A stretch of 64,000 nucleotides of DNA from an uncultured Candidatus Micrarchaeota archaeon (GCA_903884505.1 CAISET010000027.1:1211-65210), one strand, 5' to 3'; positions 31,669 through 50,839 are shown, counted from the stretch's first letter. A program made the numbers and translations. Notes: a model not told the origin generated them from the letters alone.

Positions 31669-32598
31669 CTAGTGCCTGAAGGCGAAAAGAAGCCCGGCTG
31701 CGCTTAAGAGCAGGATGAAACCTGTGCAGCAGCTCGATTCCACGCACTTTCCGTTCTGGCAGATTTGCGTTCCTGGGCAGTCGCTTGAACGTGCGCATTT
31801 AGGGGAAGGTATCGGGGTGTGGGACGGCGCCGGGGTTTCGGTTGCCGTCATTTCAGGCGTTGGAGTGAACACTGGGGTTGCGGTCGGCGCAGGCGTCTCC
31901 GTGGGTGCTGGCGTGGATGTAGGTACAGGAGTTGAAACTGGGGTGGGGGTTGGCGTGGGCGGGGCTGAAAGGCACCTGCAGTCAGGTGCAGGCATCTGGT
32001 AAAGCCCTTGCGGGCACGAGTCAAAGCACACACCTTCTAAGAAGCGCGACTTCTTTTGCGCGCACCCGTCGCTGCAGTTCGCGCACGCCTGCCCTGGCCC
32101 GATGCATGCGTCATCGAGCGTGGAATAATCCGTTCTCACCTGCCCGCCGCAAGCGGAGCAGCACGACTGCAGGCATGCAGTGTAAATCGGCTCACCCGCT
32201 GAGGCCAGCGTGATGTCCGCTGTGCCAAGCACGGTCCCGTTGCGGCTCGTGACTGCAATCTGTTGCGCGTTTTCGTTGAACGGCAAGACCACTGTGAACT
32301 CAGCCAGCTCATTCACCACAAGCCCGCCTCCGCTCGTCGAATTCGCGGGGCGGCTGATGGAAGAGAAGAGCGGGATGTTGGCAGTAGTGTTGTAAATCGC
32401 CCCGTCCGGGCCGATGATGGACACCCAGACGCTTCCGTTCGTGTCCCTGTCCGGGGCGCCCGTACCGATTACGCTTATTTCCTTCACGGTTACGTTCCCC
32501 GTGCTTGCGTTGAATTCCAGAACCGCGAAGTAGCTCTTCGCGGCCGCTATTGAGGCTAGGGCGGAAAGCAGCAGTGCAATGATGAGCAGGCGCTTCAT
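31669..32598 (-). CDS. Secreted Cys-rich, PT-linker protein with a C-terminal membrane anchor
   Basis: Signal peptide, beta-rich domain, Cys-rich modules, PT repeats, ends CCTGF-TM-RH. Confidence 0.85.
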   Translation of the reverse strand: MKRLLIIALLLSALASIAAAKSYFAVLEFNASTGNVTVKEISVIGTGAPDRDTNGSVWVSIIGPDGAIYNTTANIPLFSSISRPANSTSGGGLVVNELAEFTVVLPFNENAQQIAVTSRNGTVLGTADITLASAGEPIYTACLQSCCSACGGQVRTDYSTLDDACIGPGQACANCSDGCAQKKSRFLEGVCFDSCPQGLYQMPAPDCRCLSAPPTPTPTPVSTPVPTSTPAPTETPAPTATPVFTPTPEMTATETPAPSHTPIPSPKCARSSDCPGTQICQNGKCVESSCCTGFILLLSAAGLLFAFRH

Positions 32599-32602
32599 CC
32601 GA

Positions 32603-33874
32603 TCACTTCACATAATCTACTAGGTGGTTGTCCACTATCTTGATGCACACTTCGTTGAACATCCCGGCCTTCCCGTCCTCGCCGTCCATTATGCTCTGGT
32701 TCGTGGAGCGGTACCAGCCCGGGGACGTGCAGCCGGCGATGCAGTCGGTGTGCCACGGGTGGCCGACCCATCCGCCAAACCACGTCCTGCAGTCATACTG
32801 CAGGTCGATGTAGGAGAACAAGTCAGGGACATAGCAGTTGGCAGTCTCGTAATAGCCGGAATGCCACCATTCGCCGAGCTGCTGTATGCCGGGAAGCTCG
32901 GAGTAAACGTATTCGTCCCACAGGCCGAACATGTGCCCTGTCTCGTGTATGGCGTAGGTGTGCACGGGGGTGAAAAGGGTGTCGTTGCGCAAAACGTATG
33001 CATTTTTTCCGCCTATCTCGGCGTACGGCTCGTGCCTCCTGAGGCTATAGAAGATGTACTTGTCAGCCTGCGAGCACCTTTGTCTTCCAACGCTTTCGCT
33101 TTGCGACTCGTTTATCAGCGTCACCCAGAAGTTTATCTTGCTCATATTCGAGGCGAAGGGCTCTGCCCGCGCGAAGCCCTGAGTTATCAGCGTGTTCACA
33201 TCGTTATAGAAGGCAGTTTCCCTGCCGGCAGCCGGCACGTCCCAATATTCGCCTATTATCGCGATGTCCAGCTTGTTTCCCGCCTTGCTGCCGTTCTGGT
33301 AGAGCCGGCACCCGCACTCTGGGCTCGTGCTGTTCGGATCGAATTGGTTGAAGCAGTCCAGGTCAGCGCAGTCAACATAGCAGTCCTTGTCGTTGTCAAT
33401 ACCGTCGCCGCAGATGGACTCCACGTTGTTGGGCGGCTGCAGCACGCAAGGCCCGCCGCAGTCAATGCCGAGTTCCCCGGGATCCTTAACTCCGTTGGAA
33501 CACGGGTCCGGAGTCGGCGTCGGAGTAGGTGTAGGGGTAGGAGTGGGGGTTGGCGCCGGAGTCACAACAGGCGTCGGCGTGGGAACCTCGCTTGGGAGCA
33601 TGCAGGAGCAGGAATCGCCCTCGCAATAGCAGATTTGGTTTTCTGCGCAGCCGGGGATGCATCCGCCGAGCGGCTCCATATACTCCGAATAGGGGCAATA
33701 GCAGACGCAGCCACTCTCCGGGCATGCACACGCGGAAGGGGCGGTGCACCTATTACTATGCGAGCATGGGATATCACCGCAAAGGAAACAGTTCATGTAA
33801 CCGACCGGGCACTCGCCTGCCGAGGAGAGCAAGGCGAAACCAACAACAATGACAACCAGAAGAGCCCACCGCAT
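32603..33874 (-). CDS. Secreted zinc metallopeptidase (M64/IgA-peptidase-like) with a Cys-rich N-terminus
   Basis: KLDIAIIG, EPFA...KINFW, HETGHMFGLWDEY, YRS..SIM...FNEVC. Confidence 0.85.
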   Translation of the reverse strand: MRWALLVVIVVGFALLSSAGECPVGYMNCFLCGDIPCSHSNRCTAPSACACPESGCVCYCPYSEYMEPLGGCIPGCAENQICYCEGDSCSCMLPSEVPTPTPVVTPAPTPTPTPTPTPTPTPDPCSNGVKDPGELGIDCGGPCVLQPPNNVESICGDGIDNDKDCYVDCADLDCFNQFDPNSTSPECGCRLYQNGSKAGNKLDIAIIGEYWDVPAAGRETAFYNDVNTLITQGFARAEPFASNMSKINFWVTLINESQSESVGRQRCSQADKYIFYSLRRHEPYAEIGGKNAYVLRNDTLFTPVHTYAIHETGHMFGLWDEYVYSELPGIQQLGEWWHSGYYETANCYVPDLFSYIDLQYDCRTWFGGWVGHPWHTDCIAGCTSPGWYRSTNQSIMDGEDGKAGMFNEVCIKIVDNHLVDYVK

Positions 33875-35053: not shown

Positions 35054-35928
35054 TGGACGATTCACGGCTTCTCGCAGAAGCGCGCAAGGGATATGCCTAT
35101 GAGAAGAACCCGCTCGTCTCGGTCTGCATACCAACCTTCAACAGGGGTAAGCTTCTTGCCGAGCGCACAATCCCGTCGGTCCTGCGGCAGACTTATAGGA
35201 ACTTCGAGATAGTCATAGTCGGTGACGGCTGCACGGACGATACCGCGAAAAGGCTGCGCGCGCTCGGCGATTCCCGCATCCGGTTCCACAACTTCAAAAA
35301 GCGGAGCAGCTACCCTGCCGACCCGCTGGAGCGCTGGTGCGTTGCCGGAGTTCCCCCGTTGAATGCCGCGATCGACATGAGCCTGGGCCGCTGGATAGCG
35401 CCAATGGGCGATGACGACGAGTTCCTACCCAACCATATTGAAGCGCTCCTGCGCTTTGCGCAGAAGAATGACCTGGAGCTCGCCTATGGCGCGGCTGATG
35501 CGGAAGGGGAGCCGGAATCCTGGAAGCGCATCGGAGAATATCCCCCCAAGCAAGGCCAGATAACGGACTCTGCGGTGATGTACCGTTCGGAGCTGCGCTG
35601 CTTCAAATATGATGAGGAATGCTGGAGGACCAGGACGCCCTCGGACTGGGCGCTTTTCTCCAGGATGATCCGCGCCGGAGTCCGCGTTGGTTTCTTGGAC
35701 ATGGTCATCACAAGGCATCACTTCTCGAAGAGGCGGCCGCTCAAGCAGATGCGCCGGCACCTTGAGTTGCAGGAAATCGAACGCCTGCGCCGCGAGATTG
35801 AGGAGTACAAGGAGCGCGAAAAGCGTTACCGGCCGGCCAGGAGATTGTACGACGCGCTCACCAATCCGGTGGATGCCGCGCGAAAGATAAAGAAGCGCAT
35901 TATGAAGAGAGCCCCCAGAGGGATTTGA
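35053..35928 (+). CDS. Glycosyltransferase family 2
   Basis: PLVSVCIPTFNR, VGDGCTD, GDDD; C-terminal coiled coil. Confidence 0.92.
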   Translation: MDDSRLLAEARKGYAYEKNPLVSVCIPTFNRGKLLAERTIPSVLRQTYRNFEIVIVGDGCTDDTAKRLRALGDSRIRFHNFKKRSSYPADPLERWCVAGVPPLNAAIDMSLGRWIAPMGDDDEFLPNHIEALLRFAQKNDLELAYGAADAEGEPESWKRIGEYPPKQGQITDSAVMYRSELRCFKYDEECWRTRTPSDWALFSRMIRAGVRVGFLDMVITRHHFSKRRPLKQMRRHLELQEIERLRREIEEYKEREKRYRPARRLYDALTNPVDAARKIKKRIMKRAPRGI

Positions 35929-36082
35929 ACCCTCGACCTATCGCTTACGAGCCCTTTCGCGTCAATTTTCCGTTAACGCTTTTAGGATGTCGAGCGACGA
36001 GCGGAACGCGAGGAGCGTCCGCGCAAGCGGCGACACCGAAAAGGGTTACGAGGCGATCGCTCTACCACTGAGCTATAGGGGC
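35910..36082 (-). tRNA. tRNA-Thr(CGT) with a 101-nt intron at 37/38 (35946-36046)
   Basis: Exons read GCCCCTA TAGCTCAGTGGTAGAGC G ATCGC CTCGTA | A GCGAT AGGTC GAGGG TTCAAAT CCCTC TGGGGGC T, a complete cloverleaf. Confidence 0.9.
35966..36048 (+). repeat. Structured dispersed element, copy E1 (inside the tRNA-Thr intron, antisense to the tRNA)
   Basis: TTTTCCGTTAACGCTTTTAGGAT...CCGAAAAGGGTTA, same ends as E2-E4. Confidence 0.9.
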
Positions 36083-36143
36083 GATTGCGAAGGTAGGTTG
36101 TGCCGATAGATTATTTAAAGCGTAGCGGGGCCAAACCTAAACG

Positions 36144-43835: not shown

Positions 43836-44075
43836 CGCCGGGGATGGGATTTTCAGCGCACCTGAAAGCGCCTTGCCTTCAGGCGAGCGCGTTTGAACCC
43901 ATACTGCCCTTGCGGGCAACCAGATATCGCAACCCCGGTTGCGCTGGCTCGCTCGTCGTTGCCAAACGACCTCGCTCGCCGCGCATATCCTCGGTTTCGA
44001 TGCTTCCGACAGCACCGCATTCTGCGAGGACGGGATACTCGAGTCTGGCGCGTTACCTGGCTCCGCCACCCCGGC
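43836..44075 (-). tRNA. tRNA-Ser(CGA) with two introns: 37/38 (43926-44037, 112 nt) and 59/60 (43850-43891, 42 nt)
   Basis: Exons read GCCGGGG TGGCGGAGCCAGGTAACGCG CCAGA CTCGAG | A TCTGG, variable arm TGCCC GCAA GGGCA, ATGGG TTCAAA | T CCCAT CCCCGGC G. BHB motifs at both junctions. Confidence 0.9.
43936..43991 (-). repeat. Core-only copy of the structured element (E5) inside tRNA-Ser intron 1
   Basis: AGGATATGCGC GGCGAGCGAG GTCGTT TGGC AACGAC GAGCGAGCC A GCGCAACCG; ends match E4's AGGATATGCGC...GCGCAACCG. Confidence 0.75.
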
Positions 44076-44119: not shown

Positions 44120-44212
44120 TTTTCCGTTAACGCTTTTACGATATGAGCGCACGAGCAGAGCGAGAGCGAGCGGGTGAACCTCGTGAGCGGTGCGCTCAAC
44201 GGAAAAGGGTTA
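44120..44212 (+). repeat. Structured dispersed element, copy E2
   Basis: TTTTCCGTTAACGCTTTTACGATAT...ACGGAAAAGGGTTA. Confidence 0.9.
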
Positions 44213-46088: not shown

Positions 46089-46760
46089 ATGGCACGCGCT
46101 ACCGGGTATATCGTCCTGAATTTGAAGGCATATGCAGAGTCGACAGGAAAGGGGGCGGTCAGGCTCGCGAAGATAGCTGATGAGGTCTCGCGCGAGATGG
46201 AGGTCAGGGTGATAGTCTGCGCGCAGGCGACAGACCTTTCAAGGGTTGCCAAGGCCGTGAAAATCCCCGTTTTCGCGCAGCACGTTGATGAGAAGAAGCA
46301 GGGGGCTTTTACCGGGAGCATAACTGCTGAGGCTGCGAAGGATGCGGGCGCGGACGGCACTCTTATCAACCACTCCGAGAGGAAGCTGAAGCTCGAGCAG
46401 GTGGGCGCAATAATTGCCAGGTGCAAGGAGGCGGGCCTCCTCGCGATGGCGTGCGCGGCAACGGTTGCCGAGGCCGAGGAGATAGCGAGGTTCGGGCCGG
46501 AGTTCATAGCAATTGAGCCGCCAGAGCTGATAGGGAGCGGAATCTCGGTTTCTACTGCGAATCCTGATATTGTGAAGAATTCGGTGAAGGCAGTCCATGC
46601 CGTGGCGGACATCCCCGTCCTCTGCGGCGCCGGAATCTCAAATGGCGGCGATATCAAGAAGGCGATGGAGCTCGGGGCAGCGGGCGTGCTCCTCGCGAGC
46701 GCTTATGTCAGGGCGAAGGACCCGAAGGCGCTCCTTACTGAAATGGCCAGGAACGTCTAG
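46089..46760 (+). CDS. tpiA: Triosephosphate isomerase, archaeal type
   Basis: NLKAY, AQHVD, NHSER, IEPPELIG, CGAGIS, LLASA. Confidence 0.96.
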   Translation: MARATGYIVLNLKAYAESTGKGAVRLAKIADEVSREMEVRVIVCAQATDLSRVAKAVKIPVFAQHVDEKKQGAFTGSITAEAAKDAGADGTLINHSERKLKLEQVGAIIARCKEAGLLAMACAATVAEAEEIARFGPEFIAIEPPELIGSGISVSTANPDIVKNSVKAVHAVADIPVLCGAGISNGGDIKKAMELGAAGVLLASAYVRAKDPKALLTEMARNV

Positions 46761-46762
46761 CA

Positions 46763-46844
46763 TTTTCCGTTAACGCTTTTAGGATATGGCAGCGAGCGAG
46801 CCGCAGACACGCTGCGAGCGAGCGTCGCCAACCGAAAAGGGTTA
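46763..46844 (+). repeat. Structured dispersed element, copy E3
   Basis: Same conserved termini as E1, E2 and E4. Confidence 0.9.
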
Positions 46845-46894
46845 AGGCGAAGGACCCGAAGGCGCTTCTGACCGAAATGGCGAAGAACGTCTAG
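46841..46894 (+). pseudogene. Displaced duplicate of the tpiA 3' end
   Basis: 47/54 nt identical to 46707-46760; encodes VKAKDPKALLTEMAKNV*. Confidence 0.9.
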
Positions 46895-46898
46895 GCTC

Positions 46899-46989
46899 TT
46901 TTCCGTTAACGCTTTTAGGATATGCGCCTTCGAGCGAAGCGAGAGCGAGTCGCCCTGCTGACGAGCGACGGCGCAACCGAAAAGGGTTA
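46899..46989 (+). repeat. Structured dispersed element, copy E4
   Basis: Same conserved termini. Confidence 0.9.
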
Positions 46990-48596: not shown

Positions 48597-49514
48597 TTAG
48601 GTCGACTTCTGGACCGTCTCTACTGCTATGTAAAGAGTTTCAGTTATGCTGCCGTCGTTAACATCCACGACGTAGCCGTAGGGCCACGCACGGGTTATGT
48701 CGTATCTCGCTATATCCTCCATCCTGGAGTTCATGAGGACTATAGCCATGTTGCGCCTGCTGACCGAGCCGCTTATTGTCTGGTAGCGCCAGCTATAGAG
48801 CTCACTCTGCTGCATGTACGGGATGCGCAGGACTATGTTGCGCGGCGTGCCTGTCGGGCCGTTGGAAAGGAAGAGCGCATCTGGGTTCTTGGGGTCGAGC
48901 CTCTCGCCGGGCGCAACCGTTACCCCTACGCGGTCATAGCTGCTTGAGGTCACTATGCCGTCAATCTCAACCCTGAACCCACCATAGCCTGCGCCCAGGT
49001 AGTCGAGCCAGACAACGCCCGTGGGCGCATCACCCTCGCCCCCTCCAACGCCTGCAGGGGTAGGTGTTGGCGTCGGGGTTGGAGTAGGTGTTGCCTCGGG
49101 CGTCGGGGTTGGAGTTGAAACAGGAGTTGGGGTGGGAGTAGGTGTTGCCTCAGGAGTCGGAGTGGGCGTCGGCGCGATTTCGACGCAGGTGCAGTTGATT
49201 GTGCAGAACAGCCCTGATGGGCACGGTATTCCGCGCTCGCACATTTCACCCAGGTCCAGAATTCCATTGCCGCAATAAGGTGAAGGCTGCGGGGTCGGTG
49301 TCACGGTGGGCGTTTCAGTGGGCGCGGGAGTGCCGGTTTGCTCGGGCGTCGCGGTCGGCACAGGTGTGCCGGTTGGCGCTGGAGTCGCCGTGTGCACTGG
49401 CGTAGGGGTAGGAGTAGGGGTGCCGCCCTGCCACGGGAGCGTTATGCAGCCCGCGAGCAGTATGACCGCCGCAGCCGCAATGATGATAAGATTGAAGTGT
49501 TTCATTCCCTTCAC
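48597..49514 (-). CDS. Lipoprotein: PT linkers, Cys-rich module, C-terminal T4 gp19-like tail-tube domain
   Basis: LLAGC lipobox; FRVEIDG...NIVLR...SELYSW...RRNMAIVL...[10 protein letters not shown]...ETLYIAVE. Confidence 0.75.
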
Positions 49515-49999
49515 CCGATGACGCCCAAATCCCTCTCAAACGTCGTATAATTGTAGATGTAAGTCGCATATGTTATCCCATGTATGAGCCCCGTCGTCCG
49601 CGAGGCGGGCGTTGTGCGGTAGAAGAAATACTGGGTCTGCACCACTCCTGAGCCCGTGCGGATTTTCAGTACCATATCCTTCATATGGCCCGGGGTGCCC
49701 GGGTCCTCAGTATACCACGCTTTCAGGCTGCTGTCATTGTAGAACCCTGAAACCGGCGCCGTTATGAAGAGGGCGCTGTAGGTCGTTGCGCCAGGCGATT
49801 TGGTGACCGTTGGTGAACCGCCTACTCTGGTTTCCACTATTTCCGTGAAGGTCGAGAATTCAATCGGGTTGTTTGGGTACGCCTGGTACCTGGCATCATA
49901 CTGTAATATGGTGGAGAACGGGCCGTCCGGCAGTGCCGGGCGCGCATTGATTATGAGCGCGAATGCAAGCAGCGCGAAGAGGATTGCGTAAAGCCTCAT
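49511..49999 (-). CDS. Secreted protein with a divergent gp19-like tail-tube domain
   Basis: Signal peptide; EIVETRVGG...KSPG.TTY...LKAWY...KDMVLKI...QYFFYRTTP. Confidence 0.65.
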   Translation of the reverse strand: MRLYAILFALLAFALIINARPALPDGPFSTILQYDARYQAYPNNPIEFSTFTEIVETRVGGSPTVTKSPGATTYSALFITAPVSGFYNDSSLKAWYTEDPGTPGHMKDMVLKIRTGSGVVQTQYFFYRTTPASRTTGLIHGITYATYIYNYTTFERDLGVIG

Positions 50000-50110
50000 G
50001 AAGGTTTTATTGAAAGAGAGGATTTATTAATCGATTGTTGCCTTCCGCAGCTTCTCCGAGTAGTCTATGCAGGCCGCCTTCTTGTCCGTAAACTCCTCTA
50101 TCGAGTCACC

Positions 50111-50839
50111 TTATGACGGAGTCACGGTCGGCGTGTCTATCAGGTAGAAGTCATCGACCTCGATGTAGCCGTGCTGCCTTGTGGCGGATGCGTCCACAAT
50201 CTTCAGGTAGCCCCTCTTGTTAAGCCATTGGCTCACGTCCCAGGAATAGCGCCTGAAGCTTGTCGTTGGGTTGTCCGGCTCAAGGTGCTTCACGGGCTGC
50301 CCGTCAACCCAGAGCTCAACGTAAATCTGCCCATTCTGCATTCCGGTTGCGAGGAATTCCAGGTAAGGCTTGGAGATTGTAAACGCATCGGAGGTAAGCG
50401 TGCCCCTTGCGCCGGCGTCCCGGATTGGGAGATATGAGGAGGCGGCATACCTTCCCTCGTAGTTATAGTAAGGCTGGTCCAGGTACATGTGGTTCACGTT
50501 CGCGGTGATGATGTCGGACGGCTCGCTTCCGAAGCCAGTATCGGTCACGGTCCAGTGCGAGTAGTCGCCCGTCTCGAAGTTTCCGTTCTGCAGTGGAACC
50601 TTTGCTGGCTGGACAGCCGGAGTCGGGGTCGGCGCGGGAGTCTGGGTGGTAGAGGGCGTATGCGTTGCTATCGGAGTCGGCGCGGGAGTCGCGGCGTGGA
50701 ATGGCGTCGGAGTTGCAGGTGGAGTATATGTGGGCGTGGGGGTCGGGGTTGTCTCGCCGATTGGAATGGAGATTCCGCAAACGGAGAACAGCATAAGAAC
50801 GGCGCCTGCAGCAGCGAGAATTGCGAAATTCCCGGACAT
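50111..50839 (-). CDS. Exported PT-linker protein with a carbohydrate-binding-like beta-sandwich
   Basis: Signal/lipobox-like FSVC; NGNFETGDYSHW..., GTLTSDAFTI..YLEF, WDVS..., GYIEVDDF. Confidence 0.75.
   Translation of the reverse strand: MSGNFAILAAAGAVLMLFSVCGISIPIGETTPTPTPTYTPPATPTPFHAATPAPTPIATHTPSTTQTPAPTPTPAVQPAKVPLQNGNFETGDYSHWTVTDTGFGSEPSDIITANVNHMYLDQPYYNYEGRYAASSYLPIRDAGARGTLTSDAFTISKPYLEFLATGMQNGQIYVELWVDGQPVKHLEPDNPTTSFRRYSWDVSQWLNKRGYLKIVDASATRQHGYIEVDDFYLIDTPTVTPS

Follow-up and report, generated by a model that had tools for sequence, protein, structure and literature searches.

A dispersed repeat element inside the tRNA-Thr(CGU) intron of an uncultured Micrarchaeota archaeon points to turnover of content in an old intron

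The origin of archaeal tRNA introns is an open question. In a 2014 review, the way in which introns transpose is described as unknown (PMC4090602), and a 2026 preprint on Asgard archaea reports, in its accessible sections, that several intron routes were tested and that no general one emerged (10.64898/2026.10.13.758758). A 64,000-nucleotide stretch of DNA from an uncultured Candidatus Micrarchaeota archaeon (hereafter, the window) brings this question down to a single locus: a tRNA-Thr(CGU) gene whose intron is made mostly of a repeat element, and whose anticodon loop is repeated at the far end of that intron. A sequence-only reading of the locus proposed that it is possibly intron birth caught in the act. 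Has this tRNA gene gained an intron afresh, or has an older intron changed its content?

The gene lies on the minus strand, and the intron mode of ARAGORN is required to detect it, reporting tRNA-Thr (cgt) i(37,101) at G000:C27 c[37119,37292] (G000 being the genome that carries the window). Default ARAGORN and Rfam at gathering score detected no RNA gene across the whole window, and tRNA-Thr(CGU) is absent, at E 0.01 or better, from the results of the Rfam tRNA model on the whole genome. The locus comprises the following features:

35909..36082, minus strand: tRNA-Thr(CGU) gene with its intron, 174 nt
36047..36082, minus strand: 5' exon, positions 1-37, 36 nt, with a short D loop (sequence and ARAGORN)
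35946..36046, minus strand: intron, 101 nt, in the 37/38 register
35909..35945, minus strand: 3' exon, from position 38 to the 3' end plus 1 nt
36110..36120, minus strand: promoter-like CTTTAAATAAT, ~30 nt 5' of the tRNA start (recognized from sequence only)

With the insert removed, the exons form a complete cloverleaf (ARAGORN -i), consisting of an acceptor stem GCCCCUA/UGGGGGC, a D stem GCUC/GAGC, an anticodon arm AUCGC-CUCGUAA-GCGAU and a T arm GAGGG-UUCAAAU-CCCUC. Every stem of the exons is paired, the conserved letters of the D and T loops are present, and differences from the acceptor stem of the orthologue in the related genome G004 come as paired changes. The insert is located between positions 37 and 38; the register is ambiguous inside the repeated loop heptamer, and 37/38 fits. 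A search of the whole genome (YU-CGU-R loop plus D and T arms; 1.51 Mb, rated 100% complete) yielded this one tRNA-Thr(CGU) candidate, and neither a second exon match nor a second tRNA-Thr(CGT) gene, the possibility of which the sequence-only reading had raised, was found in G000. None of the sequencing runs listed for the locus is an RNA run. In four DNA runs aligned to the locus, the contigs break at the repeat, and neither junction was bridged when 31 letters were required on both sides. Joints in these runs that skip 99-121 nt were considered as alleles and rejected: the contigs differ at 2-6 positions in ~40 nt and have other letters in between, and are read as tRNA genes of other organisms.

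The content of the intron was correctly recognized at the outset as mostly repeat: from CCC to GGAAAA, about 80-81 of the 101 nt belong to one copy of a dispersed element, which occurs at four places in the window and which is accompanied, in the intron, by an additional 3' arm:

35966..36048, minus strand: element copy of the tRNA-Thr(CGU) intron, in tRNA sense UAA-CCCUUUUCGG, a cargo hairpin of subtype X and the core AAAAGCGUUAACGGAAAA; its first two nt coincide with U36 and A37
35952..35965, minus strand: 3' arm UUGACGCGAAAGGG, in which UUGACGC pairs with GCGUUAA of the core and GAAAGGG with CCCUUUU (from the fold)
44120..44212, minus strand: second element copy, ~40 nt 5' of an unannotated tRNA-Ser(CGA)
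46763..46844, minus strand: third element copy, directly past the stop codon of gene 46089-46760
46899..46989, minus strand: fourth element copy, following a 54-nt duplication of this gene's 3' end (46841-46894, 87% identical to 46707-46760)

The family is built of modules, namely a 5' end UAACCCUUUU, a variable cargo hairpin and the core AAAAGCGUUAACGGAAAA. Read in tRNA sense, the 5' end has the form [U/G/C]NNC-CCUUUU and is followed by at least one GC-rich hairpin, which varies among copies, and then by the core. The 3' arm is an extra of intron copies, absent from copies outside introns, and a near-identical arm (UGACGCGAAGAGGG) is found in the tRNA-Ser(GCU) intron of G000; in the intron form the element has inverted ends, with CCCTTTTCGGTGTC opposite GACGCGAAAGGG in an imperfect match. 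The 23-nt core TTTTCCGTTAACGCTTTTAGGAT occurs 4 times in the window and not once in 100 shuffles, and the 18-nt core AAAAGCGTTAACGGAAAA has 29 matches in the genome at no more than 2 mismatches, against 1 for the reversed control.

Copies of the element are concentrated in and around tRNA genes. When the flanks of the 29 core matches were read by eye, 9 were found in tRNA introns, 7 within ~60 nt of a tRNA gene, and 13 elsewhere or at contig ends; diverged copies are present in at least five further tRNA introns of G000. The 23 copies that were read in the related genomes G003 and G004 are distributed similarly (16 in tRNA introns, 3 directly past a tRNA 3' end, 1 upstream of a tRNA, 3 elsewhere). 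The sequence-only reading had suggested that splicing is what makes the element tolerable in tRNA genes, an idea that is plausible and fits this family-wide pattern.

The age of the intron can be judged from orthologous genes. The tRNA-Thr(CGU) gene was read in 12 genomes, of which 10 have an intron at 37/38 and two, G013 and G037, do not:

G000 (own genome): 37/38 intron of 101 nt, element of subtype X
G004 (same family): 37/38 intron of 46 nt, a mini form with CCCUUUUU, a small hairpin, the core and GGG
G003 (same family): 37/38 intron of 110 nt, subtype Y and additional 3' sequence
G002 (same family): 37/38 intron of 14 nt, without element
G007 and G009 (same family): 37/38 intron of 17 nt each, without element
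G016 (same order): 37/38 intron of 46 nt, without core
G017 (same order): 37/38 intron of 55 nt, without core
G026 (same order): 37/38 intron of 107 nt, without core
G053 (same class): 37/38 intron of 122 nt, without core
G013 (same order): no 37/38 intron; D-loop intron with a core-like module
G037 (same class): no intron

All five genera of the family thus carry a 37/38 intron in this gene, and in other families of the order (G016, G017, G026), as in G053 of the same class, the site is occupied by introns of unrelated content. Synteny was confirmed in three of the relatives, with a neighbouring protein at 75% amino acid identity in G004, and another neighbour at 77% in G003 and 65% in G002. 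A metagenome scan with the neighbouring 328-aa protein gave 80 loci at 48-63% identity, and tRNA-Thr(CGU) stood beside the gene in 0 of the 80. The 60 relatives that were searched include no member of the same genus.

Intron birth caught in the act is not supported by this comparison. The syntenic gene of G002, with 14 nt, and the tRNA-Thr(CGU) genes of G007 and G009, with 17 nt, carry an intron with the same 37/38 boundaries and no element, which is the very observation that the sequence-only reading had named as speaking against its own proposal. The tRNA-Thr(CGU) intron is best read as a case of content turnover in an old intron, not of intron birth. In the reading that we favour, and that we consider reasonably probable, an intron already stood at 37/38 before the family divided into its genera, a repeat copy now fills its interior, and the gene is probably functional.

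Element-type introns in tRNA-Thr(CGU) are confined to G000, G003 and G004, the only core-rich members of the family. Core matches number 29 in G000, 12 in G003 and 11 in G004, as well as 10 in G013, 50 in G022, 11 in G024 and 7 each in G019 and G039 (controls 0-4); seven other genomes of the same family have 0-1 each. The cargo differs among the three. Subtype X is found in the Thr(CGU) and Lys(CUU) genes of G000 and in Ser(GCU) of G004, and the copy in Thr(CGU) of G000 is 91% identical over 83 nt to the tRNA-Ser(GCU) intron of G004; subtype Y is found in Thr(CGU) of G003 and, in G000, in tRNA-Ser(GCU) and between two tRNAs. The Lys(CUU) and Leu(CAG) introns of G000 and G004 have the site, the 5' end and the core in common, with different cargo. 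We infer from this distribution that the core of the element-type intron was inherited in the three genera while hairpin cargo was exchanged between copies; repeated independent insertion at one favoured site fits the same three-subtype data.

Insertion at the DNA level is seen outside introns, where direct repeats of 49, 33, 25, 20 and 8 nt flank individual copies (no more than 3 of 200 shuffles reach the score, and none of 200 for the four longest). Among the 26 copies for which both ends were found, these five repeats and the 7 nt at tRNA-Thr(CGU) stand out; the remaining 20 have nothing beyond chance, and most copies do not share a target-site duplication of fixed length. At 46707-46989, two element copies with different cargo are combined with the 54-nt, 87% identical duplicate, and the interval to the next gene is ~310 nt in G000; in G004, the orthologue of gene 46089-46760 (70% amino acid identity) is followed by the same downstream gene after ~25 nt, so that the site is empty at the one locus tested. 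Near 46760, the letters ahead of the duplicated stretch are GTC on the host side and TTA in the element-side copy, which assigns UAA to the element rather than to the target.

Several movers and roles were considered for the element and rejected. Profile searches of the genome for RVT_1 and Y1_Tnp returned no match to either family. Retroposition was set aside, there being no reverse transcriptase match in the genome, and guide-target pairing of the IS200/IS605 type, as a source of the 4-bp covariation described below, was dismissed given the absence of a Y1 transposase and the assignment of TTA to the element at the empty-site locus. A terminator-plus-promoter cassette, with a tRNA split in cis, was abandoned as well: the distance from the TAAAAG box to downstream tRNAs varies, and the T run is only 4 long here.

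Within the element, the first C of CCCUUU and the three nt before it can pair with G plus three letters of the core. This 4-bp pairing between 5' end and core is present in 56 of 60 copies by way of ten complementary pairs (label shuffles: mean 11.7, maximum 23/60), a statistic that ignores the kinship of the copies, which were drawn from G000 and from loci of G003, G004, G013 and G022 (L005, L034, L037, L042-L061), the nearest upstream CCCTTT having been chosen blind to pairing. Moreover, all intron copies that were read have the same orientation as the tRNA, and seven copies in G000, G003 and G004 start 0-1 nt past the discriminator base, which places their T run there; one copy of G000, at C25:39434, abuts a tRNA 3' end in the opposite orientation. 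Retained pairing, uniform orientation within introns, the position behind seven tRNAs and the presence of the core across the order are what a host RNA module would show, such as a signal for the processing or termination of tRNA transcription units or for circular RNA, kept by selection and delivered by way of the intron, rather than selfish DNA. We hold this to be very unlikely, as the element is patchy among close relatives (0-1 vs 11-50 copies) and the same tRNA has element-free introns of 14-17 nt in G002, G007 and G009. Against it also stand the copies that follow protein genes and have target duplications, one of these sites being empty in G004, and the variation among orthologous genes in copy number and cargo.

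Content turnover in an old intron has also to accommodate the repeated anticodon loop, CTCGTAA, which is indeed present on both sides (35945-35951 and 36046-36052, each reading TTACGAG on the plus strand):

36046..36052, minus strand: heptamer copy 1, CUCGUAA, comprising anticodon loop positions 32-37 and the first intron nt
35945..35951, minus strand: heptamer copy 2, CUCGUAA, comprising the last 6 intron nt and A38; CUCG is the 3' strand of the central helix, and UA with A38 the 3' bulge

The 94 nt between the heptamers start with CCCUUUU, end with GAAAGGG and are unique as a whole (1 match at no more than 3 mismatches). Such an arrangement could arise by a fresh gain or re-gain, in which an element with CCCTTT...AAAGGG ends inserted into an intron-less anticodon loop and duplicated the 7-bp CTCGTAA; the inverted ends and the duplicated loop would at once form a 7x7 loop between two helices, cleavable by a relaxed endonuclease. 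Several observations are in keeping with it. The last 6 intron nt equal exon positions 32-37 at 6/6, compared to 0-4/6 in 20 other introns (4/6 in the element-free G002, 2-3 in the other Thr(CGU) orthologues, 0-3 in the remaining introns); the middle of the central helix is identical, not complementary, to the exon, as duplication predicts; and the cargo is unlike that of both orthologous element-type introns. The direct repeats of 49, 33, 25, 20 and 8 nt at other copies, and the site that is empty in G004, likewise agree with a gain by insertion.

However, five genera and other families of the order have the 37/38 intron, and a fresh gain would require that it had first been lost. UAA is the element's own 5' end, as seen from the GTC near 46760, and is also U36-A37-A38 of any such Thr tRNA, which leaves only CUCG as a possible duplication; the outer C and G of CUCG are required for pairing with G35 and C32, and only its two inner letters are unexpected. 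G002 already reaches 4/6 identity without an element, and a flank shuffle test of the heptamer repeat gives p of about 0.055. In the copies with long repeats, the duplication is found directly at TAA-CCC and 2-4 nt past GGAAAA, whereas a 14-nt arm lies between element and repeat in tRNA-Thr(CGU). Finally, a comparable loop repeat was sought in 18 other element-type introns and found in 0/18.

The heptamer repeat is real, and weak as evidence for target duplication; that it is a true insertion footprint appears rather unlikely, and we regard a fresh gain as unlikely. Were the heptamer such a footprint, a tRNA-specialized non-coding element and a duplicated half-loop would together rebuild a 3-4-3-spaced motif that an epsilon2 endonuclease accepts. 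Insertion into a tRNA gene would then be harmless from the first generation, and tRNA-Thr(CGU) would be the preserved intermediate of a mechanism by which archaea gain protein-spliced introns, the first concrete one; this combination, too, is improbable.

Whether the turnover has left the intron removable depends on its splicing motif. The minimum-energy fold of the 174-nt precursor retains the acceptor, D, anticodon and T arms and pairs CCCUUUU with GAAAGGG in a 7-bp helix (h'), so that the element end does pair with the other intron end, as had been predicted; UAA is unpaired on both strands, between h' and the anticodon stem. The flanking helices, namely the 5-bp anticodon stem (h) and the 7-bp h', have pair probabilities of 0.46-0.9. 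In the canonical register, the central helix is as imperfect as described earlier (C-G, U.C, C.U, G-C), with 2/4 positions paired. The strict hBHBh' motif is defined in the available text of PMC3239211 by two 3-nt bulges with 4 bp between them (3-4-3); the intron has the 3-4-3 spacing with two central non-pairs, a relaxed form. The strict register lies 5.6 kcal/mol above the minimum and has a probability of 0.0 in the predicted ensemble, the fold program pairing the inner CG with CG instead, an alternative worth only 0.7 kcal/mol.

A set of 21 canonical introns from G000 and its relatives, restricted to rows in which the intron starts with CCCTTT and tRNA arms are present, and then re-scored, places these values in context. 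Central-helix non-pairs number 0 in 11 introns, one in 9 and two in a single intron, that of tRNA-Thr(CGU) in G000, which has the weakest central helix of those compared; the tRNA-Lys(CUU) precursor, by comparison, has 4 Watson-Crick central pairs. Forcing the strict BHB costs 0-9.6 kcal/mol in the 20 other introns, and at least 5.6 in 5 of them. An imperfect central helix is not exceptional in this set, and by energy the tRNA-Thr(CGU) intron is no outlier. We know of no assay of a BHB centre with two mismatches.

The genome encodes both enzymes that splicing of this kind would need in the scheme set out below. RtcB is recognized at E 2e-178, and residues 3-390 of the 390-aa EndA, encoded at G000:C2 (L001:883-2052), align to PDB 4fz2_A (E 3e-141), which we take to be the epsilon2 splicing endonuclease of ARMAN-2. 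By this full-length match, the host has a splicing endonuclease of the broad-specificity type, and the sequence-only reading had pointed out that some DPANN splicing endonucleases accept relaxed BHB motifs. The endonuclease type also agrees with the assignment of the genome to Micrarchaeota. The paper behind PDB 4fz2 is PMC3488258. In the accessible part of PMC3239211, the ARMAN-2 epsilon2 enzyme cleaved both the strict and a relaxed motif in vitro, the relaxed substrate being an hBH motif at 59/60.

A precursor of tRNA-Thr(CGU) would accordingly have a complete route to maturity within this genome, in which transcription, cleavage and ligation are all inferred steps. Transcribed from its own promoter, the precursor would fold into a cloverleaf, with two UAA bulges and the weak centre enclosed between the anticodon stem (h) and the 7-bp CCCUUUU:GAAAGGG helix (h'). 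The epsilon2-type EndA would cleave after A37 and after intron nt 101, and RtcB would ligate the exons and probably circularize the intron. The repeated heptamer makes the exact register immaterial to the product, since any pair of cuts 101 nt apart inside the heptamer would yield an identical mature tRNA.

An old intron with new content could nevertheless have become a dead end: the element, or mutations that later struck the central helix on its 3' strand, would have destroyed the splicing motif and left a dead gene, with ACG read by tRNA-Thr(UGU). The latter tRNA is present in G000 (ARAGORN) and may read ACG by wobble, in which case tRNA-Thr(CGU) is possibly dispensable; its central helix is the weakest of 21, the strict register is missing from the ensemble, and the Rfam tRNA model is silent on the gene at E 0.01 or better. 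Yet the exons are intact, with paired stems, conserved D- and T-loop letters and acceptor differences from G004 that are themselves paired, a promoter-like box stands at the usual distance, and no replacement copy was found in G000. ACG makes up about a third of the Thr codons (5193/14858 in a crude count over open frames of at least 400 aa), and 5/20 sister introns are thermodynamically no better. Death of the gene thus appears quite unlikely to us. To judge from its sequence, the sole tRNA-Thr(CGU) gene of the genome is probably functional, and its intron is likely to be spliced, because the gene is single-copy, its exons are intact, EndA and RtcB are encoded and equally relaxed motifs are common in related introns.

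MITEs and the REP, BIME and BOX repeats of bacteria and archaea are short, non-coding, hairpin-rich and multi-copy. The element shares all four properties, along with inverted ends (in the intron form) and flanking duplications at some copies; unlike these repeats, its duplications vary in length and are lacking at most copies, and it is strongly linked to tRNA genes, with a uniform orientation inside them. Closer to the present case, Fujishima et al. (2010, Mol Biol Evol 27:2233) reportedly described transposed BHB tRNA introns in Thermoproteales. For these introns, transposition at the DNA level is inferred in the available text of PMC4090602, PMC3239211 and 10.64898/2026.10.13.758758.

As far as these texts go, the Thermoproteales resemble the present family in having near-identical introns in tRNA genes for different amino acids, a broad-specificity endonuclease and an inferred spread at the DNA level. 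The corresponding signs are found here: closely similar introns occur in different isoacceptors (subtypes X and Y), and Thr(CGU) orthologues of five genera have introns of 101, 110, 46, 14 or 17 nt with different content. The two systems differ in phylum and in enzyme (epsilon2 here, an alpha-beta heterotetramer there). By the same accounts, it is also particular to the present family that copies stand behind tRNA 3' ends and protein genes, with long target duplications and one empty site, and that the element has a covarying internal helix and exchangeable hairpin cargo.

Many disrupted tRNA genes are described for Candidatus Micrarchaeum acidiphilum ARMAN-2 in the accessible part of PMC3239211, and it shares with the present genome a three-unit endonuclease of ~390 aa, many intron-bearing tRNA genes that standard tools miss, and relaxed motifs. 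The available ARMAN-2 descriptions give intron positions and motifs, with no shared repeat family inside the introns (PMC3239211), and the relaxed substrate described there is the hBH at 59/60, in contrast to the 3-4-3 frame with two central mismatches seen here. In Caldiarchaeum, a mobile element at a threonine tRNA gene is tied, in the available text of PMC3293823, to intron gain and to a stranded 5' tRNA fragment. The tRNA-Thr(GGU) of G000 is comparable, with a 19-20-nt 5' stump, an element copy and a full gene; the Caldiarchaeum element as described in that text, however, is 1.8 kb long and has a recombinase gene, whereas the present one is 60-140 nt and non-coding. In the literature on tRNA introns of Micrarchaeota and DPANN, supplements aside, we did not find a shared repeat family in such introns described.

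In this family, one short element makes up intron content, follows directly on tRNA genes and, beside protein genes, occurs as a DNA insertion flanked by target duplications; its version differs between the orthologous tRNA genes of neighbouring genera. These settings and the differing versions make the route by which introns arrive testable. The lesson of tRNA-Thr(CGU) itself is more modest, and concerns turnover within an old intron and how far a splicing motif can relax.

A number of further observations were made on the element and its surroundings. In intron copies, the core letters that take part in the 4-bp pairing can pair with the 3' arm instead of the 5' end. The tRNA introns at L042 (G022:C39) and L044 (G013:C14) are built of mini-elements in tandem, two or three to an intron, which recur every ~59 nt, and many of the 50 core matches in G022 lie in such arrays. 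At G000:C29:10541-10880, a 19-20-nt copy of the gene's own 5' end, with an ancestral-looking promoter, is followed by an element, 52 nt and then tRNA-Thr(GGU), and a second element copy begins right after the 3' end of this tRNA. At G000:C29:3375-3685, a tRNA-Ala(UGC), apparently with a T-loop intron, has element copies on both sides, the 3' copy beginning one nt past the discriminator base.

The window also contains the unannotated tRNA-Ser(CGA) mentioned above (43836-44075, minus strand, ~240 nt), which by reading is interrupted twice, by an intron after position 37 and another in the T loop, and which was missed by ARAGORN, in default and intron mode, and by the Rfam model. Many tRNA genes of G000 have long or multiple introns and need manual reading, including Leu(CAA) at C1:7819, Gln(UUG) and Leu(UAA); the Rfam tRNA model marks only 23 places at E 0.01 or better in this genome, which is rated 100% complete. 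At 31874-33586 and 49069-50749 of the window, 19 loosely similar stretches of 47 nt, with spacings that are multiples of 6 and a GGNGTNGG-like periodicity, are probably low-complexity coding repeats.
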